A stretch of DNA of 64,000 bases. Origin: Stegostoma tigrinum. Lineage: Eukaryota. The position numbers were made by a program, and so were the translations under genes. The stretch spans positions 3,465,795 through 3,529,794 of the forward strand of contig NC_081400.1 of assembly GCF_030684315.1 (NCBI RefSeq), in the 5' to 3' direction. Under the pieces are notes generated by a model. The model saw nothing but the letters and a program-made list of their open reading frames with translations. It had not been told where the DNA came from and made no database searches. This document shows positions 1,244 to 61,041 of the stretch, piece after piece; position 1 is the first letter of the stretch; every line of letters starts with the position of its first letter.

Positions 1244-4200
1244 GGAGGAAGGGATAAGCATGATTGAAGGGATGGTGTGTGTTACAGAGGTCCAGAGTGA
1301 TTTAGGAGCTGGAGAAGTTGACAGTGATTGGAAGGGGAGTAGGGTCTGGAGGAGGTGGTAGTGGAGAGTGAGTGGGCAGAGCTGGAGGCATTTACAGTGA
1401 TTGGGAGGCGTGTGTGATCTGGAAGAGGTGGCATAGACCACGTCTTGGAAGGTGTTGAAGGAAGTTATAGAGATAAGGAGTGGCCTAAGGGCTGGAGAAG
1501 GGTGCAGAGCTGGGGAGGTGAACAGCGATTGGAGGATGGCATGGATATTGAGTGATTTTTAGACCTGGGGGAGACCACAGTGATATGGAGATGTTTTGGT
1601 GTTTTAGGAGATAACAGAGATCGGGCTGGATATAAGGCCTTCAGGTGGTGACAGAGAGGAGAAGGGGATCGGGACTGGAGGAGATGTGAGAGATCAGAAG
1701 TGCATAGGGCCTAGCTGAAGAGAAGGCACGCAGAGTCTGGATGATTCAAAAATTTCGGCAGGGCTGTTGGATTTTTTTGAAGTTACAGAGGTGGTCAGAG
1801 GTGTAGGGCTGAGGTTGCCAACAGATTGAGGGACAGGCATGGGGACTGGAAATTGTGACACAGATAGGGAGGTTTGGAGGTACTGGATGAAGTATCAGAA
1901 ATAAGGAGGGCTGTGGGCGCTGGATTTTGCTTACAGAAATAGGAAGGGGTGTTGGGTCGGTTAAAAGACTGAATAGGGGCACCGTTTCATGCAGCGTCAC
2001 GGTGCTGGAGGAAGTAAGAACGATATGGAGGGTGATACGGAAATGAGGTGCTCAGAGTGGTAGGAGTGTAGGTGCTTGAGGAATTGACAGATAGAGGAAG
2101 GAATCTCGGAGCTGGAGGGAGTGGCAGAGATAGAGAAAGGAGTATGGGCTGGAGGACTGTATGGAGATAGGGTGGGATATGGCGACAGGAAAAGTTGACA
2201 GATATTAGGAATGGTGAAGGGTATGGAGTCAGTTACAGATCTAGGGAAGGATGTAGGGCTCGAGGTTGCTTACAGAGAAAAGGAAAAGTACATGGTCTGG
2301 AGATTTGACAAGTATACAGAGGGATGTAGGGACTTTACAGAGATTTAGAGAGAAGTCGGTGCTGGAGGAGTTGACAGAGCTGGGGAGGGGTGAATGGACT
2401 GGATGAAGTTACTGAGATACGGAGGTGTGTTTGGTTGGAGGTGCTGATGCTGGCAGATAGAGATATAGGGACTGATGTAGATGACAGAGATAGGGAGTGG
2501 TGTAAGGGCTGAGTGAGCTGACAGAGTGAAGGAGAGGCGTCGATATAGAGGGGGTTGCAGTGATTGAGCGGGATGTAACTGTTGAAGGAGGTTACTAAGA
2601 TCGTGCGTTGCGTAAGGCCTAGAGGATATCACAGACATAAGGAGGGGTGTTGGGTCTGGAGTTGACTGCAGAGATGGGAAGGGGTGAAGGAACTGGTGGA
2701 TGTGGCAGTGATATGGGCTGGAGGATATTATAGATACAGGGAGGGGTGCAGGTGACGGAGGAGATGGAAGTGATTGGAAATTATCTGGGGGCTGGAGGAG
2801 ATTATATAAATAAGGAAGGCTGTAGAGATGGCTCAGATTTGCACAGGTACAGATGTGTCCATGAGCTGGAAAGGTTTACTCAGATGAGGAACAGTCCAGG
2901 TGCTGGAGGAGGTGACAGAAATAGGGAAGGGTAGAAGATCTTGAGCAGTTTATAGAGCTAAGAAGGCGCTAGAGTAGATGAAAGAGATAGGGAGTGTTCT
3001 TTCTGCTGGAGTAGAGGACAGAAATAGGGACGAAAGTGTACGAACTGAAGGATGCAAAATCGATAAGGAGGGGTGTAGGGATGGAGAGACTGTAGTGATA
3101 TGAAGGGTGGATCTTTTGGAGGAGGGTACAGAGAGAGCAGGTTTCGTAGGTGTTCGCGTAGGTTACAGAGATGTCAATGGAATTTATGGCTGGAGTTGAT
3201 TGCAGAGATAGGATTGTGTGGACGGAAGGGATTAGATAAGCGTGGAAAGGTGGAATTATCTGATGGAACTATCTAGTGAGGAGTACACGCATCTCAGGTG
3301 ATGGCAGAACTATGGACGTGTGAACGTGCTGGAGGCATTGACTGTAAGAGATAGAAGCAGGATCTCAAGGGAATGGCACTGATTGGGAAGTGTGTAGGAA
3401 CTGGAGAAGGGAATGGTGATAGAATAGGATAGAGGGGCTGGAGAAGGCGACAGTGATGGGAAGCTGTTCAAGGGATGGAAGTGGTTAAAGAGATAGGGAC
3501 GGACATAGGGGCTGGAGGTATTTACAATGATAGTGGGAGTTTCTGAGACTGGTAGACTTCATGATGAAACAGTGGACTACAGGAATAAGTAGGGCTGTAG
3601 AGCCAGGGAGAAATACAGGATCTGGAGGATGTTACATACAATGGAAAGAGGTCCCGAGTTCAAATAGATTCAGAGGCAGCGAGGGCATGGGGCTGGAGTA
3701 GGTTACTGGGATAGGGTGAATTTCGAGGGCTAGAGGAGTTAACAAACATGAAGGAGAGCAATGGAGCTGATTGGACATTTCTGGGAAACACTATTGCAAA
3801 CTGACCTGGTTACATTGGTAAGCACTGGAGATATTATCAGAAATACTGAAGAATCAAGGGTTTGGAGGATGTGGCAGAGACAATGAAGGATGTTGGAAAT
3901 GGAAAGGGCATTGAGATTTGGTGGGATATATGATTTTGAGGAAGTGACATATTGGAAAGGGATTAGTGCTCAACATGATTAAAGAGTTAGGGAGTTGTTC
4001 ATGGGCTGGAGGAGGGTGTGGTGATAAAGTGGCATATAATGACCTGAGGAGGTACCATGATTTGGAAGAAGTCTGTGGCTGCAAGTGGTTCCAGAGAAAG
4101 CAAGTGGCATAAGGTCTGGAGACGGTTGCAGAGATATTGAGACATATTGGGCTGAGAGGATGTACAGAACTAGGGAGTGGGAAAGGGACTTGAGGATGGG

Positions 4201-4870
4201 GTAGGGTGGGATGAAGGGAATGGAGGAATCTATCGACAAAGGAAGGGATGTTACAGGGAGAAGAATATCTTTCGGAGCCGAAGCGTACAGTGAGGGGAGT
4301 ACCATCTTTAAAAGGTGGCAGTTAGACAATAATGGAGGGATTGAAGCAATTGCAGAGATAGGGAGTGGTGTCGGGGCTTCTGGAGATGGCAAACATAAGG
4401 AAAGCTTTATTGACTGGAAATGGCAAAAGAGATCGGTTATGGGTGTCACGTTTGTGAAAAATAAGAGCGGTCGAGAGTGGTAAAATGTTCTCAAGAACAC
4501 TACAGAGGTAGGGAGGGGCGTTGTGGATGGAGGGAGTGGCACTGATATGGAGGGTTTTAAGTGTTGTGGATGTAAGACGGGAGAGTTATCGGGACATGAG
4601 GTAGTTACAGTGAAATCAAAGGCTGTAAACATTGACAGTCAGAGTGAGGAATTTCGGGTCTGGAAGATGTGGCACAGACAGGGAATGATGTTGAGACCAA
4701 AGGAGAGTATGGCGATAGGGCTGCATATAGGGGTTGGAGCGGGTGACAGAAATCGTGAAGGGCTCAGTAGGTTGAAGCACTTTACAGAGATGAGGAGTGG
4801 TTGGAGGAGGGCTTGGTGATACTATGGAATATAGGGACTGGAGGGCGTTTCAGGGATAGGGCTGGAGAAT
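1244..4870. repeat. Degenerate G/A-rich ~37-bp satellite, copy A
   Basis: Recurrent GGGCTGGAGGAGGTTACAGAGATAGGGAGG-like units with strong purine bias on +; colinear with 37497-41140. Confidence 0.85.
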
Positions 4871-5747
4871 TAAACCTGGTGTGAGGTCTGACGTGGTCCT
4901 GGCGTGTTTGGGAACAGGAGTAAAATGGAGAATGAAAGACTGTAGAAGATAAACATCAGGAGCCCACTTCGGTTATTTCGAGTGGCTCACGGCCCTGTTG
5001 GTGGTAATGTGTGACATGTCTGAGAAGGTGAGGGTTTGATGGAGCCTCTGTATTTTCCCTCCTGCTTGTGGGTGAAGCCACAGCTGCCTGTGTGATGTTT
5101 TGAAGCCCACAACTGATTGTGGGGCTGCTGCTAATCGCTCAGTGATCAGAGAGGTTTCAGTTCCACTGCCAATATGACCCTCCTCTTCCCCTACATCTGG
5201 AGCGAGCGACCGCACCACCTGCAGCCCCTCCACAAACAGGCCAAATAGAGCGTCACTTCTGTTCTCGGAAGCTAAAATGAGGCACTTGAAACACCACTCA
5301 GCTCCCCCGAGATTGAGGTCAGGAGACAACGCTGCATTGAGGGCCGACACAGAGTCAGACTAAGACCCAGCTCTCAAACAATGTGAATCATCATTGGAGT
5401 GGCTTCGAATGGACTGCTGAAGTGTCGTTCTTGTATCGCAGCTTTCAAAGGAACAAAACTTCAAGAACAAGGGAAGACTCCAATTGAGAGAGACGAGGCC
5501 ATTCAGCCTTCCACCTTTCTCTGCCTTTCCCACCATACCACTTTCATTCACCATGTACATCGATTCAGTCAGTGCACAAAATTCTATACTGTAAAGTATT
5601 CCATAGACATAGAGAACGCTACCAACCTCTGAGCCGCATAACTTTTTCATCTCAGTAGAAAAAGCCTTGTCCCTATCCCACCCCTTCAAGAAATTTTCTG
5701 TTTTCCTATTCTTCCAACAAAAGTGGACAAATCCATATTTCGCAAAT
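4871..5747. other. Conserved non-coding block upstream of IgL cluster A
   Basis: Aligns by eye with 41140-42016 and with 60855-61041 + 63652-64000. Confidence 0.85.
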
Positions 5748-6513: not shown

Positions 6514-6559
6514 ATTTGCCTGCTCTCTGCCCCTTCATTTACATTCCAGTGAATAAATA
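6514..6559 (+). promoter_or_regulatory. IgL V promoter: octamer variants and TATA-like box
   Basis: ATTTGCCT (6514-6521) and ATTTACAT (6537-6544) each differ by one base from the light-chain octamer ATTTGCAT; AATAAATA at 6552-6559; about 130-170 bp upstream of the leader ATG. Confidence 0.65.
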
Positions 6560-6684: not shown

Positions 6685-6733
6685 ATGTTTTCCATGGTGC
6701 ATCTACTGTGGGCCCTGCTGCTCCATGTAACAG
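6685..6733 (+). CDS. Ig light chain leader exon (MFSMVHLLWALLLHVT-G)
   Basis: Hydrophobic signal peptide; phase-1 donor AG|GTCAGA at 6734; 107-nt intron ending TTCATTGTAG at 6840. Confidence 0.92.
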
Positions 6734-6840
6734 GTCAGAAATTGCTCTGGGTTAATGTCTGCCCATTAAACACTGGGCGATGCTCTTTCACAGCCGCTGG
6801 CAAAGTCACTCAAAGTGTGTCCGTGTTTCTTTCATTGTAG

Positions 6841-7200
6841 GTACCTTGGCCGTTCCTGTCCTCATTCAGAGTCCAATGTCTGACCCAGTCTCCGCCGGCC
6901 AGACCACCCAGTTGAACTGTGCGATGCAGAACGGGAAAGTGGGCAGCTACTACGTGTACTGGTACCGACAGAAACCCGGAGAGGCCCCGGTGTGGGTGAT
7001 TGAGCATCAGCCTGATGGTAATATATACAGGGGCACCGGTTTCACTGACCGTTTCCAACCTTCTCGAGACTCCATCAGTAACAGTTTCATCTTAACCATC
7101 GGAAACCTGGTCTCCAGTGACTCCGCCGTCTATTACTGTGCTATGTGGGATAGCTCAGCAAGTGATATCTTCGGAGGTGGAACTGCCCTGACCGTTCGGA
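6841..7200 (+). CDS. Ig light chain germline-joined VJ exon, type I (NS5 / sigma-cart)-like
   Basis: VPVLIQSPMSDPVSAGQTTQLNC...WYRQKPGEAP...DSAVYYC-AMWDSSASDI-FGGGTALTVR. V runs straight into J in frame with no RSS; donor A|GTAAGT at 7201. Isotype assigned from resemblance to shark type I V regions. Confidence 0.95.
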
Positions 7201-7306
7201 GTAAGTGATCCTCTTTTCTCTTTCTCTGTCATTCATACCAGTTCAACTTTTGGAGTAAGTGATCCTCTTTTCTCTTTCTCTGTCATTCATACCAGTTCAA
7301 CTTTTG
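7198..7306 (+). repeat. Perfect 54-bp tandem duplication spanning the J splice donor
   Basis: GGAGTAAGTGATCCTCTTTTCTCTTTCTCTGTCATTCATACCAGTTCAACTTTT at 7198-7251 and again at 7252-7305. Confidence 0.95.
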
Positions 7307-8775
7307 TCCAACCAGAGTCGATTTTGTTCTCTGGATTCACAATTTAACAGATTCTGCAACAAATCCAACCCAGACGCACAAGTCAGAGTGTTACATCAAT
7401 AATTTTCTCACTCACTCACGCAGGTCAGAATATGATTTATCTTAATAATTTTCTCACAGATTCGTACAGGTCAGTATGGTTTATAGATATTAACCATTCT
7501 CTCGCTCTTTCATGGACACCAACAGACCAGTGTGTTATTGATCTTAAACATTCTCTGGCAGATGCATGCAGAACTGAGTCTTATTTTCATCACATATGTC
7601 AGACAGATTATTGTAATGATTTTTCTCTCACTCATACATGTCAGTGTTCCTTTAATAATTCCGTCTCCCTCACAGGCACACGCGGTTCAGAGTGTTATTC
7701 ATCTTATTTATTCACTCTCTTCCTATCCGTCTCTCTCACACACAAAGGTCAGAGACATGTTACTGGCCCTCTCTCTCCCGCACACAGGCCAGTGTGTTTT
7801 ATATATATTAGTAATTCCCTTTCTCTGTCTCCCTGTCTCTCACACACAGGTCAGCGTGTTATTTATATTCATAATTCTCTCACACACAAACAGACACAGG
7901 TCAGACATTATATCAATAATCCTCCACACATCGAGGTCAATGTTACATTTATAATTCTATCTCTCAGAAACACACAAACATCACAGATTACAACAATAAC
8001 TCTCTCTAATAAACAGATCTGAGTGTTATTTACATGAACAATTCTCTCTCAAAATCGGACAATTATCAGATAGATGATATCAATAATTCTCTCACCGATA
8101 CACATGTCAGGGTTCATTAAATTCTTTTCTTTCAAACATTGATAGGTACCTGATACATTAATTCTCTCTCACAAAAACTCACAGGCAATTTAATGTTTAT
8201 AATTCGCCCTCTCTGTAACACACAGATCGGTTAGCAAATCATTTACATTAGCAATTCTGTCTGTCACAAACACACAGGTTAAAGATTCTGACAATAATTA
8301 TCTCGTAGACACACTCATCAGTTTTACATTGATAATTCTCTCTCTCACAAAGACACACAGGTCACAGTGTTAATTCCACTAATAATTTTCTATCTCCCTA
8401 CATTTGCCTCTCCTTCTCTCTCTTAGAAACACACACACGGAGGTGAAGTGCTCCTGAGGTTCGAAATTATTTCTCTCTCCCTCTTTCATACTCTCTCACA
8501 AACACAGGTCAGTGTTGACATCAATAATTCTGTCTCACACAAGTCAGACAGGTCTTCTTCCGATTTCTCTCAAACACAGCTCAGCGTCTTACATATGTTA
8601 ATAATTATCTCTCACATAGGCCTGGGTGTTATGTATGTATTCATAATTATCTCATACCCACAGTTCAAATTGATAGATCAATGATTCTTGCCCGCTGTAT
8701 TTACACACACAATGTGACATTGATCATTCCATCTCACACAAACATGTAGCAGTTAGAGTGTCATTTCGATCAATA

Positions 8776-8930
8776 NNNNNNNNNNNNNNNNNNNNNNNNN
8801 NNNNNNNNNNNNNNNNNNNNNNNNNNNNNNNNNNNNNNNNNNNNNNNNNNNNNNNNNNNNNNNNNNNNNNNNNNNNNNNNNNNNNNNNNNNNNNNNNNNN
8901 NNNNNNNNNNNNNNNNNNNNNNNNNNNNNN
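8776..8930. other. Assembly gap
   Basis: Run of N. Confidence 1.
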
Positions 8931-9144
8931 GAAATAATGCTTCTCTCTTTCAAAAGCGCAGAGGTCAACGTTTTACTTTTATTCATTATTCTCTCACACA
9001 TTCTCTCTCACTCACAAACAAAGACACAGCTCGAAAATTAAATCTACACTTCTGTCACAGCAAGTCGTTTGTTTTCTTAATAATTGTCTGTCTTACTCAA
9101 ATACACCAGTTAGATTGTCATCCCTGTTAGTAATTATCTCTCTA

Positions 9145-9492
9145 TTCATTCATGGGATGAGGGATTCACTGGCGAGGCAGCACTTACTGCCGATCACTAA
9201 TTGCCCTGAGGAGAGCTAAGAGTCAACCACATTGCTGTGGTCTGGAGTCACGTGTTGGCCAGATCAGGTAAGATGGCAGTTTCCTTTCCTTAAGGACATG
9301 AGTGAGGCAGATGGGTTTTTCTAACAATCAACAATGGATTCACAGTCATTATTAGGTTCTTAATTCCAGATATGTATTGACTTCCAATTCCATCATCTGC
9401 TGTGGTGGGATTCGAACCAGGGTCTCCAGGACTTTATCTGGGCCCTTGGATTAACAGCTCAGTCATAAAAACATTAGGCCATTTCCTCCCCT
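9145..9492 (-). mobile_element. SacSINE1/Deu-type SINE
   Basis: Reverse complement has a tRNA-like head (GGTTCGAATCCC) and the core ...GACTCCAGACCACAGCAATGTGGTTGACTCTT...GGGCAATTAG. Confidence 0.7.
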
Positions 9493-10021
9493 CATATTCA
9501 TGCACAAACACACAGATCAGAGTTTGCATCAATAATTCTTTCTCACATACACAAGTCAGATTGTGAATCTCAACATTTCATTCACACACTGGCCACACTG
9601 TTCTATTTATAAATAATTCTCTCTCGCACGCAGGTCAGGCAGTTGGATTAATTACTCCCACACTCTCTGTCTCGCGCTCTCACACACTTGCACACACGGA
9701 CACCACACATGAACACACAAACCCATGCAAATGTCAGAGAGCTGTATAAATACTTCACTCACTCACTGTCACAGACACTGACAGGTCAGATTGTCACAGA
9801 AATTAATAATTCTCACATGCATAGGTTTGGCAGATAATCACACACAAGCATATATGTAAATACTGTTCTGTCTTACATGCAGGTCAGATAGTTACATTGA
9901 CACATTTCTACCTTTCTGAGTCTTCTATCTATTAGTAATTCTCCATCACGCACACAGGTGAGAATGTTTCTCTTCATACATCCCATCATCTCTCTACCTC
10001 TCTCTCTTTCCCCACACACAG

Positions 10022-10344
10022 GTAGTGATGATCGGAAACCATCCGTACTTCTGCTCCCACCTTCCCCAGAACAAATCGACACGGGATCAGCCACTCTGTC
10101 CTGTCTGGTGAGTCGCTTTAAGCCTGGCCTCGTGCAGGTCCTCTGGAGCGTGGATGGGAAAGAGACAGACAGTGGAGTGACCACAAGTGCCGTGTCCCCA
10201 GATAGTGATCAAAGCTACAGCCTGAGCAGTTACCTGACAGTCACGGCCACTGACTGGAAGAAAGGTTCCAGATATTCCTGCAGTGTGAGGCACGGATCAC
10301 TGACCTCGCCTCTCCTCAACACCATCAGCTCCAGCGACTGTTAG
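10022..10344 (+). CDS. Ig light chain constant exon, cluster A
   Basis: Acceptor CACACAG| in phase 1; SDDRKPSVLLLPPS...ATLSCLV...LW...YSLSSYL...YSCSVRHGSL...SSSDC*, a C1-set domain with C-terminal Cys. L+VJ+C = 732 nt, 243 aa. Confidence 0.95.
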
Positions 10345-17751: not shown

Positions 17752-18155
17752 TGAGCCTCTGACAAAGTGCTGGTGTAATGTCCCGCTTTCTATTTATCTG
17801 GTTAGGGTTCCTTGGGTTGGTGATGTCATTTCCTGCGTTGGTGATGTCATTTACAGATGAAATGACATCACCAACCCAAGGAAACCCAACCAGATAAATA
17901 GAAAACGAGACATAACACCAGCGCTTCATCGGAGGCTCACTGATGATGTTACCTAGAATGGTGACAAAACATCTGGGAACAAACCTTCAAGCTCAGTGAA
18001 CCAGCTTACATCTGGAACAAAATAAAGACCCACTCTTCTGTGGACCGAGAGGAGGAGGGCGCTGTGTTGGAGGTGGAAGGAAGACGTCGGGTTGGCTGTG
18101 CACCCTTGCAACCAGTGGATCTTAATGCTGGGTTCAGGGGAGCAGCCAACCTGCA

Positions 18156-19172
18156 ATGATGGCTGCGGCAAGTGCTCGTGCCCCAGGTCGGGGGGTCCGG
18201 AACACCATCCGTGCTTCATTGAAGAAGGTGGATGAAGGTGCACCTGTGGACCACACCTTCTTCATGAAGAGGGTCCTGTTGGACTGTTGTGGGATCGCTG
18301 CTGCGGACATTTATTGCCTGCAGGATTTCACCGGAGGAGGTTTTTACGATGTGACCTTCAGGAGTGCCAAGCTTTGTGAGCGCTTCCTGGAGGTTTTCAA
18401 GGAGAAAGGAGGTGAGGGCCCCGTCTCTGTATTGACCGCTGTCCCGCTGTTTGTGCCAGCGCAGAGGAGCCGTATGGTGACTGTACACATGTACAACCCG
18501 CATGTGCCAGCAGTTGATGTCTTGACCTTCCTTGGAAGGTACGTGAAGGTGGAAGGGGACCTAACTGACATCATGGACCCATTCGGGATCTGGACCAGTA
18601 AGAGGCAGGTCAAGATGACGCTGAGGATGGGCGCGGACGGGAGCATTGTACACCCACCGTCAAGCTTCGAGATCGGCGGGAGCAAGGGCTACCTGACCTA
18701 CGCAGGGCAACCTAACGTCTGCCATGCCTGTGGTAGGTCAGGTCACGTGGCGGCCAACTGCAGGGAGGAGGGACACCTTGCAAAGGATTGCCCACAAGAA
18801 AAAAGCTGCAACCTTTGCAGGGAAGCGGGCCACCTCTATAGGGCATGCCCGAAGCGGGGAACCTCCTACGCCCAGGTCGCTGGCAGGGGCAATGCGGAGA
18901 GGAGAGGAAGGCACCAGGGCCCTGCAAGGACACCAATAATGTGCAGGAGGGCCAAGTCGTGCAGGAGGGCCCAGCCCCTCAGGATGGGCCCGAGGCCAGC
19001 AAAGCACCCCTCCAGGCTCCACTCCCCCCACGAATACCCCAGAGTCGATGGAGGCGGCGACAGGCGACCCAGGGGGGTGAACAACGGTCCAGAAAGCGAG
19101 GAGGAAGGCGCGTCGGCGGGCACAGGAACCACAACCATCAGGCGGGAAGAGGCAGCTGCAGGGGGGCTATAA
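18156..19172 (+). pseudogene. Tx1 ORF1 (gag-like zinc-knuckle protein), frameshifted at the 3' end
   Basis: CHACGRSGHVAANC, a partly deleted second knuckle (..EEGHLAKDC) and CNLCREAGHLYRAC. Confidence 0.85.
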
Positions 19173-19555
19173 GAGCTCCCCTGACAAGGGAGATTCGGAG
19201 AGGGCCCGCCCAAAGCAGAAGTTAAAGATCTCAAGGGAGAAGAAAAGCAGCACAATGCTTCCAGGTGACGGGAGGCGTCCTGAGGCTCCCTCCAACACCC
19301 AGTCACATGCCGCTGGGGCCCTGGAGGGCCCCCCAGAACTTCCAGGCAAGAAGGAGGAAACAGCGTGTTCCCAGCCTGACCCAGAGCCGGACTCTCCTGC
19401 CTCCGTACCCCCGGGGGGAATGCCACCTGGAAGGCAGCACGGATGGTTTCCTGAGCATGGAGAGCGTCCAGCAGTTAGCCTGGGCAATGGGCATGAAGGG
19501 ACAGATGGAGGGGCTGGGCCTTGGACTTGGGGAGGGTACTGCGTCACTACCCACA

Positions 19556-22500
19556 ATGGGGGTACGAGTTGAGAGCATTAATGTGCGCAGCGTCAAGTCC
19601 ACTGCAAGATGTGTGTCCATTTGGCCTACCTGACCACCGTCAAGGCGGACCTCCTGTTTCTGCAGGAGTGCGGGATACCACACCTCAGCAGGTACGGGAA
19701 ATGGTCCGGCGTCTGGACCTGTGGACCTTCGATCTGGTCGGAGGTAACGACTGTCACTCCTCGGGCCTGGCTATTCTGCTGCGGGGTTGCAACTTCACCA
19801 TCTCTCAAGTTCAGGAGGTGGTGGGGGGGCACCTCCTTGTGGCTGATGTCACCAACATGAACGGTCCCCTGAGGCTGATCAACGTGTACACCCCAGCGGT
19901 ACAGAGTGAGCAGTTGGCCGTCCTGCAGCGGCTTCCACCCCTGCTGGCTATGTCCAGGCCGGTCATCCGAGGCGGACACTTCAACTACATCATTGATGCA
20001 GGTGGAAGATCCGGCGTGGTGACAGCGGGTGGGGGGAGTCAATTGGACGTCACGTCCAGATTCCTGATGGGCACGGTGAAGGACGCCAAGCTGCTCGACG
20101 TCTTCAGCACCCCTGCAGACGGAGCGCAGCGGAGGTACACCTGGTCGCGGCCAGACGGGTCTATTCGCTCAAGGATAGACTTCCTGTTTGTGTCACGGGC
20201 GTTCTCAGTCAGGTCCACCGGCGTTGAGCCGGTGTTCTTCTCTGACCACTGCCTCCTGCTGGCTGGCTGTCACTTACAGGACGACCAGCCGGCTGGCAAG
20301 AGGACGTGGAAGCTCACAACGACTCTGTTGACCCCAGAGAACGTCGAGGAGCTTAAGACGGAGTACGCCGGTTGGACAACCGTGAAACCCCTCTTTGAGT
20401 CTCCGGGCGACTGGTGGGAGACGGTGAAGGAGAACATCAAGAGGTTCTTTGTCCTCAAGGGTGTTCAGAAGGCGAGAGAGAGGCGGGGAAAGCTGTCACG
20501 ACTCCAGAAAAGGGTGCAGAACCTGCTCCTCCGTGGAGCAGGATGAGACGTGCTCGCGTTTCTTCTTTCAGAATGTGCACAAAGAGAGCTTTGTGCTTAG
20601 CTGGCTGAAGGAGGACGACGGCTTGGTGACGTCGTGTCGGCCCAACATTTTGAGGATCAGCAGATCCTTCTATGCCGGACTGTATGACACAAAGCCCATG
20701 GTCAGCACGGCCTCTGAGTCATTCCTGTCGTCTATCACAGAGGTCTTAGATGACAGCACAAGGGAGTGGCTGGACCAGCCGATATCCCTGGATGAGCTGA
20801 CCAGAGCCCTCAAGTCCTTGGAGAGGAATAAGACTTCCGGGAGAGACGGCTTACCGGTCGAGCTGTATTCCATTCTGTGGGACCTGGTCGGCCAGGACCT
20901 GCTGGAGGTGTACGATGGTGCGCTTCGGGCAGGGGAAATGTGCAAGTCCATGAGGAAGGACATCATCACCCTCATTTACAAGAGGAAGGGGGAGAGGGAA
21001 GAAATTAAGAATTGGCGTTCCATTTCACTATTGAACGTGGACTACAAAATCCTGGCCAAGGTCATAGCCAACCGGGTCATGTCTGTCCTGGAGTCGGTGA
21101 TTCACCCTGACCAAACCTGTGCTGTGCCGGCCAGGAAGATCACTGACAGCCTCGCGCTCATCAGGGATACGATCGCTTACGTGCAGGACAGGCAGGTGGA
21201 CACCTGCCTCATCAGCCTGGACCAGGAGAAGGCCTTCGACAGGGTCTGTCATGCTTACATGAGGGACGTCCTCTCCAAATTGCAGTTCGGGGAGGGCATC
21301 CGCAATTGGATCCGTCTGCTCTACACCAACATCGTTAGCGCAGTCTCGATCAATCGGTGGGAATTGGACAGTTTCCCCGTCAGATCTGGAGTCAGGCAGG
21401 GCTGCCCGCTCTCTCTTGCCTTGTTCGTGTGCTGTGTGGAGCCCTTCGCCGCATCCATCAGGAAGGACATGAGCCTGAACGGCATGGCTATCCCAGGCAG
21501 CGGAGGCCTTCAGGTCAAGACCTCCCTGTACATGGACGATGTCACCGTCTTCTGCACCGATCGTCGGTCGGTGAGTAGGCTGTTGGACATCTGCGGCCAG
21601 TTTGAAGTGGCCTTGGGTGCCAAAGTCAATAGGGGTAAGAGCGAGGCCATGTTCTTCGGGAACTGGGACAACCGCTCCTTCATCCTCTTCACCATCAGGA
21701 CAGACTACCTGAAGGTGCTGGGTGTTTGGTTTGGTGGAGTTGGGGCGTGCACTAAGACTTGGGAGGAGCGTATCACCAAATTGAAGCAGAAGCTGGGCAG
21801 GTGGACGCTCCAGTCCCTCTCCATCGCGGGTGAGAACCTGGTTGCCAGGTGTGAGAGGCTTTCGGTACTGTTGTATGTGGCGCAGGCCTGGCCTATTCCC
21901 TGGACCTGCGCTGCTGCGGTCACCCGGGCAATCTTCCACTTCATTTGGGGGTCGAGGATGGACCGGGTCCACAGGGACACCATGTACAAAGACCTGGAAA
22001 ATGGGGGAAAGGGCGTACTGAACGCCACCCTCCCCTGACGGCTACCTTTGTGTGCTGCTGCATCAAGCTGTGCGTAGATCCTCAGTACGCAAACACCAAG
22101 TGTCACTACTTACTGAGGTTCTACCTGTCCCCGGTGTTGTGAAGGATGGGCCTGGCTTCGTTGCCGCGGAACGCTCCGAGTAGTTGGACCGTTCCGTACC
22201 ACCTGTCCTTCGTAGAGAAATTTTTGAAAGGAAACACCTTTGACCACAAGGCCGTCAGGTAGTTGTCAGCATGTAGTATCGTCGAGACCCTTTAGGAAAA
22301 GGAGAGGGTGAATCCTGTCGTGTGGTTCCCCATGCAGTCTGCCAACGTCATTTGGTAGAATGCCTCATGGCCAGAGCTTTCAAACAAGCACAAGGACATT
22401 GCTTGGCTGGCGGTGAGAGGGGCTCTGCCAGTGAGATCCTTTATGCATGCCCGGAATCTCTGCGCCACCACACGCTGCCCTCGAGGCGGCTGCGGGGGGG

Positions 22501-22836
22501 ACGAGACTGTCAATCGCCTCCTTCTGGAGTGTGCCTATGCGCAGGAGGTCTGGAGGGGGATGCAGTTTGTCGACGTTCGTCCCGAGCAGCTCCGTGACGT
22601 GGGACTCCGTGCTCTATGGGCTGTTTCCCGGGATGCACACTGAGACCAACATCAACTGCGCCTGGAGGACCATCAATGTGGTGAAAGACGCTCTTTGGTC
22701 TGCCTGCAACTTGCTGGTCTGCCAGCTGAAAGAACTGACCCCGACTGAGTGTTGCAGACTGGCGCACTCCAAGGTCCAGGACTACGTGCTGAGGGATGCA
22801 CTAAAGCTTGGGGCAGCCGCCGCCAAGGCGCGGTAG
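19556..22836 (+). pseudogene. Tx1 ORF2 (endonuclease + reverse transcriptase), disrupted
   Basis: MGVRVESINVRS..., LFLQEC, LINVY, RIDFLF, FSDH; RT motifs KNWRSISLLNVDYKILAK, LDQEKAFD, GVRQGCPLS, YMDD. Split over several frames with stops. Confidence 0.9.
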
Positions 22837-37320: not shown

Positions 37321-39016
37321 GGCATTGTGCTTCTGCTCGTTTTGGGGATCGGGAAGATGACAGAGAAACATGGGGCGGGTGTCAGTTGCTGAAGGATGTT
37401 ACAGAGAGGAGGTTTTCAGGATTGCAGTATACCGTATAGCAATGGAGGGGTATATTGGGTAGAGGAGGATATAGCCTTAGCGACTGTTGTAGGAGTGGAG
37501 GAAATGAGAAGGATAAGTATGGTTGAAGTGATGGAGTGTGTTACAGAGATCGAGAGAGGTTTAGGCGCCGGAGGATGTGACAGAGATTGGGAGGGGAATA
37601 GGTCTGTGGGAGGTGATAGTGGAGAGTGTGCGGTAAGAGCTGGAGGGGTTTACAATGATAAGGAGGTGTGTGTGACCTAGAAGAGGTGGCAGAGAAAAGG
37701 AAGTGGAAGGGGCTGGAGGAGGTGACAGTGATTGGGAGATGTTTTGATGCTGGAAGGATTTGGAGACATCGGGAGGATTTTAGGTCTGGAGGAGATAACA
37801 GAAATAGGGATAGGTGTGAGGACTTCAGGAAGCTACAGACAGGCGAAGGGATTCGAGGCCGGAGGAACTGAAAGAGATCGGAAGTGCATAGAGCCTATCT
37901 GAGAAGGAGGCACACAGAGGCTGGAGGAGTTAAACAAAATTAGGCAGGCGCTTAGGAGCTCGTGGAAGTTAAAGAGGTGATGAGTGGTGTAGGGCTGAAC
38001 TTGCTAACAGAGGTAGGGAGATTTGTAGAGACTGGAATAAGTGACAGAGATAGGGAGGGGTGTAGATGTTGCAGGAAGTGACAGAATTAAGTAGGGTTGT
38101 GGGGTTTGGATTTGCTTGCAGAAATTGTAAGGGGTATTGGGTTGGTTAAAAGACTTAAAAGTGGTAAGGTGTGTTGCAGCATCTCAGGTCTGGAGGAAGT
38201 CACAGCAATGCAATGTGTTATAGGGAGCTGAGGTGCTCAGAGAGATGGGAGTGTAGATGCTGGAGGAATTGCCAGAAATAGGAAGGAATCTATGACCTGG
38301 AGGCAATGGCAGAAATAGAGAAGGGTCTGAGAACTGGGGGAGTGTATAAAGATAGGGTGCAATATAGGGACTTAAAAAGTTGACAGATATACAAAATGGT
38401 GAAGCGTCTGGAGGAGGTTAAAGAGCTAGCTAAGTGTGTAGGTCTAGGGTTGCTTCCAGAGAAAAGGAAATGTACAGGAAATGGAATAGGTGACAGATAT
38501 ATGGAGGGGTGTAGGGACTGGAGGACTTTGCAGGTATATAGAGAGATGTCGATGCAGGAGGAGTTGAAAGAGATCGGGAGGGGTGATGGACTGGATGAAG
38601 ATACCGAGATAGAGAGGAGTGTTTGGTCAGAGTTGCTGATAATGATAGAGCGAGGTGCAGGGACTGATGTTAAGACAGAGATAAGGAGTGGTGTAGGGGC
38701 TGAGTGAGTTAACAAGATAAGAAGTGATGTCACAATGAAAAAGAGGGATGTAAACGGTGAAGGTGGTTACAAAGATAACGAGTTGTGTAGGCCCTGGAGA
38801 CTGTTACAGAAATAAGGAAGGATGTTGGGGCTGGAATTGTCAACAGAGGTGGGAAGGGGTGAAGGAGTTGGAGTGTGTGGCAGCTATACAGATGGATGTA
38901 TGGACTACAGGAGATTATAGAGATAGGGAGGGGTGCTGAAGATGGAAACGATGAGAGTGATCAGAAATGATCTAGGGGCTGGTGGAGATGATATAAATAA
39001 GGAAGACTATAGGGAT

Positions 39017-39071
39017 CAGAGATAATGGGAACTGCAGATGCTGGAGAATTCCAAGATCATAAAAGATCATA
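39017..39071. mobile_element. Penelope-type micro-insertion with 14-bp TSD
   Basis: Matches the start of the 17032 element; TSD AAGACTATAGGGAT at 39003-39016 and 39072-39085. Confidence 0.8.
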
Positions 39072-40010
39072 AAGACTATAGGGATGGCTGGGAGTTGCAC
39101 AGGTCTGGATGTTTGTAGTGGCTGGAAAAGTTTACAGAGGCAAAGAACATTTCAGGTGCTGTGAGGAGGTGACAGAAATAAAGAATGTTACAGGGTCTTG
39201 AGCAGTTTATAGAGTTAAGGAGGCGCTGGAGTAGATGACAGAGATAAGGAGGATTCTATATGCTGTTGTAGATGACAGAGATAGGGAGAGGTATCGGGAC
39301 TGGAAGTTGTGAAATCGATCAGGAGGGTTGTAAGGATGGAGGGTGTAGTAGTGATATGGAGGGGTGTAAGCATTGGAGGAGGTTACACATATAGTGATTG
39401 TTATAAGTGCTGGAGGGGGTAACTGAGTTGGGGAGGGTATTTATGGCTGGAGTTGATTGTAAATATAGGGAGAATTGCTGTGGATGGAGGGGATTAGATA
39501 AGTATGGAGAGGTGTAGAGTCTGGTGGAGCTATCAGGGAAGGAGTATAGGCTTCTTAGGTGGTTACAGAAATCTGAACGGGTGTAGAGTCTGGTGGCTTT
39601 GACAGTAATAGGTGTCCAGGAAATGGCAGAGATATGGAAATGTGTAGGAACTGGGGAATGCTATGGTTATAGGGTGATATATAGGGACTGGAGGAGGTGG
39701 CAGAGATGAGGAGCTGTTAAAGGGCTGGAAGTGGTTAAAGAAATAAGGAGTGATCTCGGGGATGGAGATATTTACACTGATAGGGAGAGATTCAGTGACT
39801 GGTAGATTTTATGCTGAAACGTTTGGGCTACAGGCACTAAGGGAGGTTATAAAGACAGGGTGTAGTGTAGGCTACATACAAGGGGAAGAGGTCAGGAACT
39901 GGAATAGTTTCAGAGATAGGGAGGGATGGAGGAGTTTACAGACATTAAGGCGAGCATTCGTGCTGATTGGAGATTTCTGGGGAACGGTATTGGAACCAGA
40001 CACGGTTACA

Positions 40011-40071
40011 TTTTTGTGCTCCTAAGATGCTGCTTGGCCTGCTGTGTTCATGCAGCTCCACACTTTGTTAT
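40011..40071. mobile_element. Penelope-type micro-insertion with 10-bp TSD
   Basis: Matches the right arm of the 17032 element; TSD CACGGTTACA at 40001-40010 and 40072-40081. Confidence 0.8.
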
Positions 40072-41139
40072 CACGGTTACACTGATAATCACTGGAGATA
40101 TTATCAGGACTACTGAGGAATTGAGGGTCTGGAGGAAGTGGCAGAGATAGCAAAGGATGTTGGAAATGGAGAAGGGTATAGACATATGATGGCATATATG
40201 GATTGGAGTAAGTGACATGTTGGGAAGGAATTAGATGCTAAACATGATTACGGAGTAAGAGGGTGGTTCAGGTACTGTTGGAGGATATGGTGATTAGGTG
40301 GCATATCATGACTGGAGGAGGTACCAGAGGTTTGGAGAAAGACTGGAGCTGGAAAAGGTTCAAGACACAGGGAGTAGCATAAGGTCTGGAGGCGGTTGCA
40401 GAGATTTCAAGCCGCATAGGGCCTGGAGGATGTACCAGAGCTGGGGAGTGGTGTTGGAACTTGTGGATTGGATAGGGTGGGATGTAGGGAATGGAGGAGC
40501 TTGTAGAGATAGGGAGGGATGTATGAGTTTGAGGGAGTTACGGGGAGAAGAACATCTGTATGGGGTGAAGGAAGACATAGAGACAGTGAGGAGAGTAGGG
40601 GCTGAAAAAAGTGACAGGTAGGCAGGAATGTCGGGGACGAGAGGAATTGCAGAGAAAGGAAGGGGAGTAGAGGCCTGAGGATGAGTCTAAGTTAAGGAGA
40701 CGGTTATAGAGAGAGGTTACGTGTGTCAAGTCTGTGAAAGATAAGAGAGGGAGGGAGTGGTGTTTTTTTTCAGAGAACGCTACAGAAATATGAAGGAGTG
40801 TTGTGGATGGAGGGAATGGCGCAGATATGGAGGGTTTTAGGTGTTGGGCAAGCTAAGACAGGAAAGGTACAGGGACCTGAAGTAGTTACACTGAAAAGGA
40901 AGGCTATAAACATTGACATTAATAGTGAGGAATTTCGGGTCTGGAAGACGTGGCAGAGATAGGGAAGGGTAATGAAACCTGAGCAGAGTATAGAGGGGTT
41001 TGAGCGGGTGACAGAGATGGTGAGGGGTTCATGGGCTGAAGCACTTCACAGAGATTCGAATTGTTTGGAGGAGTGCATGGTGATTCTGTGGGATATAGGG
41101 ACTGGAGGAGGTTACAGGGATAGGGTTGGAGGATTGAAA

Positions 41140-42016
41140 GCTGGTGTGAGATCTGGCGGAACCCTGGCGTGTTTGGGAACGGGAGTGAAATGGAGAATGA
41201 AAGACTGCAGGAGATAAACAGCAGGAGTCCATTTCAATTATTTCGAGTGTCTTATGCCCTTATTTGTGTAAATGTTTGACATATTTGAGAAGATGAGGGT
41301 TTGATGGAGCCTCTGAATTTTCCCTCCTGCATGTGGGTGAAGCCTCCTGCCTGTGTGAGGTTTTGAAGCTGACAACTGATTGTGGGGCTGCTGCTAATCG
41401 CTCAGTGATCAGAGAGGTTTCAGTTCCACTGCTAATATGACCCTCCCCTTCCCCTCCATCTGGAGCGAATGACCGCACCATCTGCAGCCCCGTCACAAAC
41501 AGGCCAAATACAGCATCACTTCTGCTCTCAGAAGCTAAAATGAGGCACGTGAAACACCACTCAGCTCCCCCGAGGGTGAGGTCAGGAGACAACGCTGCAT
41601 TGAGGGCCGACACAGAGTCAGACTAAGATCCAGCTCTCAAACAATGTGAATCATCATTGGAGTGGCTTTTAATGGACAGATGAAGTGTTGTTCCTGCCTC
41701 CAGCTTTTAAAGGAACAAGCCTCAAAGAACAAGGGAAGACTCCAATTGAGAGAGATGAGGCCATTCAGCCTTCCACCTTGCTCTGCCTTTCCCACCATAC
41801 CACTTTCATTCACCATGTACATCGATTCAGTCAGTGCACAAAATTCGAAACTTCAGTCTTCCATAGACATAGTGGATGCTACAGATTCATCAACATCTGA
41901 GCTACATAACTTCTCTTCATCAAAGTAAAACTTATTTTGTTCCTATCCAGCCTTTTCAGAAATTTCCTATTTTTCTATCCTTCCAGCCAAATTGAACAAA
42001 TCCACATTTCCCAAAT
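41140..42016. other. Conserved upstream block, copy B
   Basis: High identity to 4871-5747; homology stops abruptly at CAAAT (42016). Confidence 0.85.
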
Positions 42017-42018
42017 CC

Positions 42019-42303
42019 CAGAGAAGGAGCGGGAGCAGTGGAGGAAGTGACGAGGACCAGAGGGGCAGCCGGGAAGGAAAGCAGTGAGTATAAATACTCA
42101 CCCTTCGACGCCAACGGCCATTTTGAGTGCGAGCAGCAGCAGAGGTAAGACGGACCCGGAAGACTGCAGCTAAGGTAAAGCAGTTTATTTTTAAAATTAC
42201 TTACCGGTAGCGGGCAGCGGTGTTTTTCCTCTTTCAGAGAAGGAGCGGGAGCAGCGGAGGAAGTGACGAGGACCAGAGGGGCAGCCGGGATGGAAAGCAG
42301 TGA
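42019..42303 (+). promoter_or_regulatory. 285-bp GC-rich insert with 69-bp terminal direct repeats, probably a retroelement 5'UTR/promoter fragment
   Basis: Repeats at 42019-42087 and 42235-42303, each with GAGGAAGTGACG; TATAAATA at 42089; CGGCCATTTT (YY1-like) at 42115. Confidence 0.5.
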
Positions 42304-42500
42304 CCATATATATCAGCAAGGCTGATTCCAGATGGAACCCTGCGTCATCATGGATCTCAGATGAGAGGGCTTTGTGAATCTCTCTCTAAACTCCAGATAC
42401 GCCTGTCTCTCATTTACCTCCCTCTGAGAAAGGCAAAATGTGGAGAAGGACATATTGCTGATTTTTTTTCTCTCTTTTCCCACTTTTTAACTGTCGATTG

Positions 42501-42539
42501 AGTTCTTGGTGAGCCATGCCATTGCAACGTCTCTCTATG
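42501..42539 (+). promoter_or_regulatory. Decayed 23-bp-spacer recombination signal sequence 5' of J
   Basis: Nonamer AGTTCTTGG (6/9 to GGTTTTTGT), exactly 23 bp, then heptamer CTCTATG (5/7 to CACTGTG) abutting J. Confidence 0.7.
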
Positions 42540-42577
42540 ATCGATCTTCGGAGGTGGTACCACGTTGACTGTTCGGA
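42540..42577 (+). pseudogene. Unjoined IgL J segment (SIFGGGTTLTVR)
   Basis: FGXG motif; homologous to 7167-7200; weakened donor A|GTTAGC; no V upstream in this unit. Confidence 0.9.
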
Positions 42578-44847: not shown

Positions 44848-45158
44848 GTAGTGATGATCGGAAACCATCTGTACTTCTGCTCCCACCTTCCCCAGAACAA
44901 ATCGACACGGGATCAGCCACTCTGTCCTGTCTGGTGAGTCGCTTTAAGCCGGGTTTCGTGCAGGTCCTCTGGAGTGTGAATGGGAAAGAGACAGGCAGCG
45001 GAGTGACCACAAGCGTGGTGTGCCCAGACAATGATCAAAGCTACAGCCTGACAGTCCCGGCCACTGACTGGAAGAAAGGCTCCAGATATTCCTGCAGTGT
45101 GAGGCACAGATCACTAACTTCGCCTCTCCTCAACACCATCAGCTCCAGCGACTGTTAG
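44848..45158 (+). pseudogene. IgL constant exon, cluster B (12-bp in-frame deletion)
   Basis: About 94% identical to 10022-10344 (19 substitutions counted by hand); SYSL[SSYL]TV lacks 4 aa; extra Cys (VCPD); HGS changed to HRS. Confidence 0.9.
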
Positions 45159-58389: not shown

Positions 58390-60855
58390 GCTGGAGGAGG
58401 GTATAGAGATAAGTTGGGATGTAGGAGCTGGAAGAGGTTGCAGAGATAGGCACTGGTGTAGGGGATGGAGGGAGCGAAGAAATAGCGTGGGGTGTAGGGG
58501 ATGGAGGAAGTTACAGAGATAGGGGCGGCTGTGGAGGCTGTTGGAGGTTACAGAACAAGATGTTTAGGGGGCTGAAGGAGGTTACAGAGAAAGGAAGGAG
58601 CATAGGAGTTGGAGTTGGTTACAGGGATAAGTTGTGAGTAAGGCCTTGAGAAGGTTACAAAGGTAGAGAGGGCGTAGGTTTCAGAGGTGGTCACAGAAGC
58701 AGGGAGAGGTGCAACAGCTGTAGGATGTCACACAGATAGGGTGAGGTTTAGGGTCTGAAGGAGGTTACAGAGATAGGAAGTGGCATAGAAGTTGGAGGAG
58801 GTGGCAGAGATCAGGGGTGGTGTCATCGCTGGAGGATGTTGTAGATATATTGAGTGCTGGGCAGCTGGAAGATGTAAAACATTTGGGAGTTGTATAGGGA
58901 CTTGAAGATGTGAAAGAGTGCAGGAGGTATGTAGGGGCTGGAAGAGGTTACAGATATCATTTACGGTGTAAGGGTTTTGAGAGGGTACAGAGATAGGTAG
59001 ATGTTTAGGGGCTGGAGGAGGTGACACTGATAGGGAGGGATGTAGGGGCAGAAGGAGAGTACAGAAATAGGGAAGGGCATATGAGCTTAATGAGCTCACA
59101 GAGATGGAGAGGAGTGTAGGGGCTGAAGCGGGTTATAAATACATTGAGAGTTGAGGGAGCTGCAGGAGGCCATATGGCAGGGAGTGGCATAGTGACTTCA
59201 AGACATGACAGAAGTAAGGAGAGATGTAGGTGCTGGAGGAAGTAACAGAAATCAGGAGGGGTATAAAAGTTCAAGCAAGTTACAGAGAGGAGAAATGTTG
59301 TACAGAATGGAGAAGGTGGCAGAGATAGGGAGGAGGTTGAGCTGGTAAAAATTTGCAGTGAATGGTTCGATGCAGTCGCTGGTAGAGGTGAATAAGATAA
59401 GGAGTGGTGTCAGAATGGATGGGGTGATAGAGATGGTGAGGAATGTGGGGGATGGAAGAGGTTACAGAAACAGAGAAGCATGTTGGTGCTGCAAGAGTTT
59501 GCAGAGTTAGCGAGACGCCTGGGTGCTGGAGGAGATAGCAAAGATAGGGAGGGTGTGTAGATGTTCGAGCAGGGTGACGAGACAGAGAGAGGTGTCTGGA
59601 TGGAGAAGGTTCTAGAGTTAGGGTGAGATTTAGGAGCTGGAAGAGATGACACAGATAAGGAGGTGTGTGGTGTTGGGAGGAAGTTGCAGGCATAGGGAGG
59701 TACATAGGGGATAAAGGAAGTGGCAGAGATATGGAGGAAGTGGAGACAGGAGATGGTTGCAGTGAGGTGGAAGCATGTCGAGACTGGAGGAGAGGACGGG
59801 GTTGGAGTGGGGTACAGGGGCTGGTGAACGGTATAGAGGTAGGGAAGATGGAGACAGAGGGGTATATGAGCTGGATATAGTTTTAGAAATAAATAGGGAG
59901 GGTATTGGAGATGTAGGAGGTAACCAGGACAGGGAATGGCGTAGTGTCCAGTGGACATTGCAGAGGTAGGGAGATGGGTATTGAATGGTGAGGGTTGCAA
60001 AGCCATGGAGAGGTGAAAGGCCTTGTGGAGGGAAGAGTGAAAGGAGTTGAGGTAGTTACAGAGATAGGAAGGTGTTTATTCACTGGAGGAGCTGACAGCA
60101 ATAGACTCATCTAGGGATTCAAGGAGCTGGCAGAGATGGGTAAGGAACCAAAGGAGGTTACAATGATAAGGAGAGTTGGTGGGGCTTCAGGAAGTGAAAG
60201 GAAATGCAGAGCAATTTTTAAAATCCATTCACAGGACGCCAGCGTTACTGTTTAGGCCAGCATTTCTTGCCAATCCTTAATTTCCCAGAGGACATTATAC
60301 ATCAACCACATCGTTGTATTTCTGGAGTCACATGTAGGTAAAGGCGATAGTTTCTTCTCCAAAGGACATCAGTGAACCAGAAGAGTTCCACGTGGCAATT
60401 GAAAATGGATCCATTGTCATGATTAGGCTTTTAAATCCAGATTTTTATGAAATTTAAATCCCACCATCTTCCATAATGAGACTTGAACCCTATTCCCCAG
60501 AACACCATCTGACCGGGTGGTGATAATTCAACTAGGCCACCACCTCACCAGACATGACGGCTGGAGTAGGTTACAGAGATGGTGAGAGGTGTAATATCTC
60601 GAAGAGATAGAGAGAGAATGGCTGGAGGGGCTAGCAAGTGTTACTGACAGACCGATGGAGATTAGAGGGTCAAGCAAGAGTTCAGGGGCTGGAAGTTGTG
60701 ACAGAGATAGGGAGGGTTGTATGTGTTGGAGGAGGTTACAGAGATAGGGAGGTGTGTAAGGGCTGAGAAGGTTACAGGGATAGGGAGAGGTGCAGAAGCC
60801 TGAGCAGATAACAAAGATAGGGAAGAGTGTAGGGAGCTGGATGAGTGAAAGCTGA
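58390..60855. repeat. G-rich 37-bp satellite, copy C (minus-strand SacSINE1-type SINE at about 60220-60550)
   Basis: Period readable directly: ACAGAGATAGGGAGG at 60701 and 60738. Confidence 0.85.
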
Positions 60856-61041
60856 TGTGAGATCCAGTTTGGTGCTCAAGTGCTGGGGAACGGGAGTGAA
60901 ATGGAGAACAAAAGAGTACAGGAGATAAACAGCAGGAGTTCAGTTTGGTTACTTCGAATATCATGGCCCTGTTTCGTTACAGGTGTGTCACGTCTGAGAA
61001 GGTGAGAGTTTGACGGCGCCTCTGCATTTTCTCTCCTACTT

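Follow-up and report, generated by a model that had tools for sequence, protein, structure and literature searches.

An intact joined light-chain gene

The window, a stretch of 64,000 nucleotides of the Stegostoma tigrinum genome, holds an intact, in-frame immunoglobulin light-chain cluster on its forward strand (6685-10344, +), in which V and J are fused and both introns are kept. We call this gene A and file it with the sigma-2 isotype (NS5/type I). It encodes a V-set domain and a single C1-set domain and has the layout of a leader-V-J-C minicluster. The leader exon (6685..6733, +, 49 nt, MFSMVHLLWALLLHVT) has the same letters in three clusters further upstream, named U1-U3 below. It is followed by a leader intron of 107 nt with GT..AG ends (6734..6840, +), which is spliced out in gene-family contigs of two sequencing runs, X5 and X6. 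The fused V-J exon, of sigma-2 type (6841..7200, +, 360 nt; Pfam V-set, E 4e-18), reads ...YYC-AMWDSSASDI-FGGGTALTVRS. No recombination signal sequence (RSS) lies between its V and J, and the J donor is GTAAGT at 7201. An earlier, sequence-only reading of this DNA had described an in-frame fusion with the CDR3 AMWDSSASDI and no RSS, and this exon bears the description out. A scan of the whole window for RSS, using the consensus and allowing up to three mismatches, gave four sites, none of them close to A.

The J-C intron (7201..10021, +) is repeat-rich and contains a 155-letter run of N, on either side of which it is collinear with the introns of U3 and U2. The C exon (10022..10344, +) is open, encodes 106 aa with a C-terminal cysteine, and matches the Pfam C1-set domain (E 3e-25). 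The C-terminal cysteine of a light-chain C domain usually forms the bond to the heavy chain. The three exons add up to 732 coding nt, i.e., 243 aa and a stop, and an NCBI model of 243 aa labelled Stegostoma tigrinum (P0017) is 100% identical over the V-J of A. The gene is not a processed cDNA, as had also been proposed: both introns are present and A lies in register within a tandem array, unlike a processed copy, which would have no introns, a poly-A tail, and a dispersed site. The intact fused V-J frame encodes a fixed CDR3, again in line with that proposal, and A is predicted to yield a light chain with this single CDR3 without any need for rearrangement.

Two features may lower the output of A. 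The Ig promoter octamer is a variant (6537..6544, +, ATTTACAT) where U1, U2, U3, and the downstream cluster D4 have ATTTGCAT; a genomic contig of depth 5.1 carries the variant and shows 0 differences. A perfect tandem duplication of 54 nt (7198..7305, +) doubles the J donor, with GTAAGT at 7201 and at 7255, and the second donor, if used, reads through to a stop. This duplication is not an assembly error, which is ruled out by a 59-nt contig of run X4 that covers the duplication joint with 0 differences at depth 10.6.

Isotype of the gene

We filed A as sigma-2 from the lengths of its CDR1 and CDR2, its identity to type I chains, and the spacer length of its relatives. The protein tree used below held 21 close homologues. 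Counted by hand with the IMGT boundaries, the CDR1 of A (NGKVGSYY) has 8 residues and its CDR2 (HQPDGNI) 7, the lengths that the available part of one report gives for sigma-2 (PMC5985310). A is 65% identical over 224 aa to a skate "type I immunoglobulin light chain" (AAA87170.1) and 74% identical to horn-shark chains. The V-J spacer of U1-U3 measures 394-395 nt between a 12-RSS at V and a 23-RSS at J. This agrees with the nurse-shark gene NS5-2, for which the accessible text of a previous study compares PCR products of 880 and ~490 bp (PMC2435157).

Most protein matches of A are automatically labelled by NCBI as "lambda-1 light chain-like". The initial protein search, limited to matches of near-equal length, gave two distant ones, a search of the PDB returned generic Ig matches only, and the sequence of A was absent from the protein atlas searched.

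An array of nine clusters

We searched the shark's own genome with the V-J and the C of A, mapped the array on 435 kb of genomic sequence, and found nine C exons on one contig within ~265 kb. U1, U2, and U3 lie upstream of A, 26-92 kb upstream of the window, and B, D1, D2, D3, and D4 follow downstream in this order. Each of U1-U3 is a split cluster with the order leader-V-RSS12-spacer-RSS23-J-C, and their 12/23 RSS have intact CAC heptamers. Their RSS block (V-CACAGTG-12-nonamer, a 394-395-nt spacer, and nonamer-23-CTCTGTG-J) is exactly what is missing from A, and their V is 92-96% identical to that of A. A has flanks of its own, 86-92% identical to those of the U clusters, which make it a locus distinct from them and not one of them in rearranged form.

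Three genes of the array are joined (A, D1, and D4), of which two are intact (A and D4). D4 has the canonical octamer and the CDR3 EVWGYI. D1 is dead, with its promoter and leader deleted and its C frameshifted, and D2 and D3 are split pseudogenes. A protein search found no close V elsewhere among 150/318 scored candidates: the array's contig had 8 matches at 61-100% identity and the 38 others were at most 50% identical.

A dead neighbour

The other cluster in the window, B, had been paired with A by the sequence-only reading as the unjoined half of a before/after snapshot. The window contains no second V: searched with blastn and tblastn, the V of A matches only the J of B. The promoter, leader, V, and V-RSS of B are gone, and the lesion (42016..42419, +) has two 78-nt direct repeats inside the gap. 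The upstream flanks of A and B are 72-80% identical; this homology ends at 42016 (position 5747 on the side of A) and picks up again within the V-J spacer, where B is 68-69% identical to the spacer of the sisters U1-U3 over ~290 nt. What remains is an orphan J (42540..42577, +) with a weak donor, GTTAGC, and a C exon (44848..45158, +) of 102 aa with a 12-nt in-frame deletion. Next to the J lies a decayed J-RSS (42502..42539, -), made of the heptamer CATAGAG, a 22-nt spacer, and the nonamer ACCAAGAAC with three mismatches. The CAC of this heptamer is broken (the sisters have CACAGAG), and only 25 of 39 letters agree with those of the RSS in the sisters. A loose RSS pattern (at most two mismatches in the heptamer, at most four in the nonamer, a spacer of 23) occurs 126 times in the window; we therefore recognised the remnant by its position and by its homology to the sister spacer, not by consensus alone.

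B is an older duplicate that has no V and is dead. It does keep an unjoined J, as the sequence-only reading had said, but the RSS held to flank this J is only a broken remnant. Formally, the joining did come later than the duplication of A and B, as claimed, but this says little, since that duplication is old, as the 72-80% identity of the flanks indicates. The snapshot itself is unsupported for B. B is out as a precursor of A: it has no V, its heptamer is broken, and a clade of A and B is rejected by the AU test (p-AU 1.3e-9). The true before/after comparison is between A and U1-U3.

Letters at the junction

The V of the sister clusters ends with GCT GGT TAT before the heptamer and their J starts with ATACACC TTC (ATACATC TTC in D4), whereas A reads GCA AGT GAT ATC TTC. 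At the junction of A (7157..7170, +) both RSS and the ~394-nt spacer of the sisters are missing, with a trimming of 0-7 nt at the V end and 4-6 nt at the J end. The letters can be parsed in three ways: as the full V and a J lacking 4 nt, with three later substitutions; as V, a 2-nt palindromic AT (a P addition), and a J lacking 6 nt; or as a V lacking 7 nt with 7 added nt. The loss of the two RSS close to the coding ends is common to the three parses and is what V(D)J joining produces; none of them proves such joining. The junction carries no diagnostic mark of RAG, the P addition being present in one parse of the three. We do not claim TdT additions at the junction of D1 (ATGGG), as models from related sharks with a J that starts W-I-F account for these letters.

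The join in sequencing runs

We examined seven of the 20 listed sequencing runs (X1-X6 and X10, with X5 taken twice) and left out the bisulfite raw-read runs X18-X20 as well as X7-X9 and X11-X17. X1-X4 are genomic runs of one sample (S1) at low depth, from which the assembly itself may come. The threshold of contig likeness was 97% for X2-X4 and 85% for X1. One of these four runs, X2, has a junction contig among its listed matches: 86 nt long (7113-7198), it crosses the junction with 0 differences at depth 10.5, and single-locus contigs of this run have depths of 5.9-8.1. X3 and X4 have no listed contig over 7125-7164. X1 has contigs specific to the promoter and intron of A, and all its contigs over 7143 carry the letter of the sisters. 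A split form of the V end of A was found in none of the contigs listed for the four genomic runs. The gaps at the junction in X1, X3, and X4 thus decide nothing, because the contig listings are incomplete and the split form is unlisted too.

The same junction is present in X5, a run of another sample (S2) from another study, where a contig of 7119-7196 crosses it with 0 differences at depth 643.5. X5 covers exons only, with the leader intron skipped and J running into C; we took X5 and X6 to be of RNA type solely from this exon-only cover and the splice joints. X6 has two contigs, neither of which extends to the junction, and X10, from another organism, has no exact match. The single-copy depth in bulk DNA and the letter-for-letter recurrence in a second study make it very likely that the V-J join of A is inherited in the germline, as the sequence-only reading had supposed. 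The summed depth over J in X5 is ~460,000-490,000, versus 643.5 for the junction contig of A. This run seems to contain A as a minor transcript; contig depth is a poor measure of it, and the contig itself lies within one exon.

Phylogeny and order of the joins

A tree of the C exon and 3' flank of all nine clusters (914 columns) places A with U2 and U3 (100/99), inside the clade of U1-U3 (100/100), and B outside it. The AU test rejects, in addition to the pairing of A with B, the groups A+D1 (1.7e-32), A+D4 (2.0e-47), and A+D1+D4 (3.0e-7), as well as a group of U1-U3 without A (3.9e-4); the tested groups were chosen after inspection of the tree. A is nested among split genes and hence descends from a split ancestor. 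The junctions of A, D1, and D4 differ from one another. Together with the AU tests, this discards a single ancestral join. V and J were likely joined three times independently in the germline of this array, and the joins differ in age.

The join of D4 is an old one. Its CDR3, EVWGYI, is common to five carpet-shark species, i.e., the one analysed here and, in gene models, Rhincodon, Chiloscyllium plagiosum, C. punctatum, and Hemiscyllium, and the four rows of EVWGYI type in the protein tree group together (SH-aLRT 98). In the same tree the nearest whale-shark model falls outside the group of A, U3, and U2 (SH-aLRT 95), which suggests a join of A younger than the split from the whale shark. The V tree disagrees with the flank tree, and the U clusters share the CDR3-end letters TGG AGT, which A, D1, and D3 do not have. 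This suggests gene conversion, which blurs the dating and could mimic the young age of the join of A. We did not take a whale-shark model with a CDR3 as long as that of A (P0058, AVWDSSAGYI) to prove that the join is older and shared. Split loci, too, can be bridged by gene models, as in P0059, which corresponds to the split cluster U3, and the CDR3 of a horn-shark model ends in the same letters. The decay of D1 after its joining and the presence of the D4 junction in five species indicate that, in this array, joined genes are retained in the germline.

Origin of the join

With both introns in place, both RSS and the spacer lost, a nested position among split genes, and its junction carried by contigs from genomic DNA as well as by an exon-only library from a second study, A is in all probability an inherited V-J fusion that followed germ-cell RAG cutting of a split cluster like U1-U3. 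Its CDR3 would be fixed, and B is not its precursor. RAG would have cut such a cluster in a germ cell (we infer both the enzyme and the timing), the two RSS and the spacer would have been lost near the coding ends as V and J were joined in frame, and the joined locus would then have been inherited, to make a light chain with one CDR3 without rearrangement. Any role of A may lie in early life, as the nurse shark suggests by analogy.

It is very unlikely that the assembly took up a somatic B-cell rearrangement, with a hypermutated CDR3, of a cluster whose germline form is split. The junction is unlisted in X1, X3, and X4, and the letters that flank it depart from those of the sisters at several sites close together, a pattern that hypermutation in sharks can produce; tandem substitutions are noted for it in the available part of one study (PMC2435157). 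Yet the exact junction stands at single-copy depth in X2 and is identical in X5, from the second study, and the V end of A is never listed in split form in any of the four genomic runs. One B-cell clone would neither attain single-copy depth in bulk DNA nor turn up with identical letters in a second study. An inherited join made without RAG in a germ cell is likewise very unlikely; it would stem from an ordinary deletion at a microhomology, or from a conversion whose donor was a copy (cDNA or DNA) of a somatically joined V-J and which left the introns in place. Ordinary deletions are known in the array (B and D1), GGT TAT at the end of V and A TAC at the start of J overlap by 2 nt, and unambiguous P or N nucleotides are absent. 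The deletions of B and D1, however, break far from any RSS, and both boundaries of each separate join (A, D1, and D4) fall at a coding end or within it, with the V-J frame kept in all three. The same argument was made for the NS4 genes by Lee et al., in the part of their paper available to us (PMC2193156).

A might instead be the joined allele of a polymorphic locus at which other animals still carry the split form, which we consider unlikely. The S1 runs contain only 0.55-0.68 of the words of the window, and the junction is missing from three of the four genomic listings; but the four runs amount to one low-depth sample with the junction found in one of them, the second study has the junction too, and those joined NS4 genes that were tested proved widespread in a set of seven nurse sharks, according to the accessible text (PMC2193156). 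Such an allele is compatible with an inherited fusion after germ-cell RAG cutting and would only make the join younger.

Comparison with known joined genes

The closest precedent for the argument is nurse-shark kappa. As described in the available portion of Lee et al. 2000 (PMC2193156), joined NS4 genes are nested among split sisters and derive from at least five independent joins; their RSS are cleanly removed, with possible P nucleotides, seven sharks carry them, and they are expressed in pups and not in adults. The array described here resembles the NS4 genes R4, R7, R18, RE18, R6, and R19 in the nesting, in several joins of differing age, in the clean loss of the RSS, and in the scarcity of clear N addition. 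The scarce adult message of joined NS4 genes likewise has a parallel in A as an apparent minor transcript in X5. The differences lie in the isotype and the species, in the variant octamer and duplicated donor of A (joined and split NS4 genes have the same octamer), and in the physical order of all clusters, which is known here. The comparison of A with U1-U3 repeats the published NS4 argument in a second isotype, and A is a gene of a known kind.

The same isotype (NS5, type I, sigma-cart) has been described in the nurse shark, with two split loci, one in-frame joined locus, and one pseudogene, in the text available from one report (PMC5192425). The chain encoded by the joined locus has early expression and is a partner of IgM1gj, a statement with which the accessible part of a further report agrees (PMC5192425; PMC4279169). 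Nurse-shark sigma-2 shares with the array the V-J-C miniclusters, the ~390-nt spacer, and the mix of split genes, joined genes, and pseudogenes. Unlike the four sigma-2 genes of the nurse shark, there are nine clusters here, three of them joined and two of those intact. D4, rather than A, would be the likelier counterpart of the neonatal IgM1gj partner, whose nurse-shark sequence was not among the protein matches. The type I light chains of the skate belong to the same isotype as A, and the part of the skate study at hand describes at least 89 clusters, all germline-joined and none split (PMC2192082). In contrast, the array described here has retained split sisters.

We found no publication on the Ig light-chain germline of the zebra shark, in a search whose coverage mostly excluded subscription journals. 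A alone adds little, as evidence for joined genes among split ones has been in print since 2000. The modest addition lies in an array whose clusters are placed in physical order, with split sisters that are still intact and joins of three different ages. It is possible, and we offer this tentatively, that the array records, in one stretch of 270 kb, repeated germline RAG joins together with their fates: D4 old and kept across carpet sharks, D1 dead, and A young, species-specific, and in transition, its CDR3 remodelled from the plain join, AG-YI, to AS-DI, its octamer weakened, its donor in competition with a second one, and the join perhaps still segregating. The junction of A is unique and can be used for genotyping sperm and for counting neonatal versus adult RNA. 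These matters touch on two questions, whether RAG is still editing the shark germline and what the function of light chains with a fixed CDR3 is. If the record is as we propose, the array would be a natural series for the rate of Ig rearrangement in germ cells and for the selection of a fixed antibody.

Joined genes and leader-intron acceptors of the sigma-2 array

Downstream of the window, cluster D4 is an intact joined sigma-2 gene (G000:C60:3633550-3637175, on the window's contig; sequence stretches L006, L037 and L038). Its CDR3 of six residues, EVWGYI, is conserved among the models of five carpet-shark species, and D4 may correspond to the joined chain of neonatal nurse sharks. Cluster D1, 2.4 kb beyond the window end, is a joined pseudogene (G000:C60:3532167-3534631; L005, L027) that has a 3-nt deletion ahead of the second cysteine, has lost its promoter and leader, and is frameshifted in C.

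As assembled here, the leader-intron acceptors of two split clusters upstream of the window depart from AG: CG in U1 (G000:C60:3439455-3439456, L003:1499-1500) and AA in U2 (G000:C60:3410755-3410756, L004:1499-1500). Spliced-type contigs in X5 and X6, two sequencing runs read as RNA-type, nevertheless carry U1-like letters despite the non-AG U1 acceptor of the assembly. The non-AG acceptors may represent an allele, an assembly error or the use of another acceptor.

Repeats and related exons

Clusters A, B and D1 are each preceded by a degenerate 37-nt G-rich satellite (at window 1250-4900, 37500-41100 and 58700-60900, respectively) that belongs to the duplicated unit. Long open frames on the forward strand at window 18126-22833 (up to 536 aa) and 61654-63558 (up to 635 aa) look like decayed retrotransposon proteins, which we take to be of the non-LTR family; the first element has an inverted 92% copy at G000:C60:3584990-3590411. 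On another contig (G000:C11:96.0-97.4 Mb) we found at least 30 V-J-like exons with 37-50% identity to the V-J of A, the majority extending from V through J.

A non-rearranging VJ-C1 gene

A non-rearranging leader-VJ-C1 gene is present inside and beside the array in two copies that are nearly identical and both lie outside the window (G000:C60:3563416-3564497, i.e., L030:8416-9497, and G000:C60:3674732-3675845, L041-L042). Its protein model P0087 (341 aa) also includes a transmembrane segment, followed in the description by a tail that bears a tyrosine motif, LYASL, presumably ITIM-like. Relatives (65-87%) occur in Rhincodon, Hemiscyllium, Chiloscyllium and Heterodontus. Named VJ-C1 genes include UrIg, NKp30 and PRARP (PMC10751288); our literature search, which included passages of that paper, matched this gene to no named one. 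It may be of greater interest than the joined gene A.
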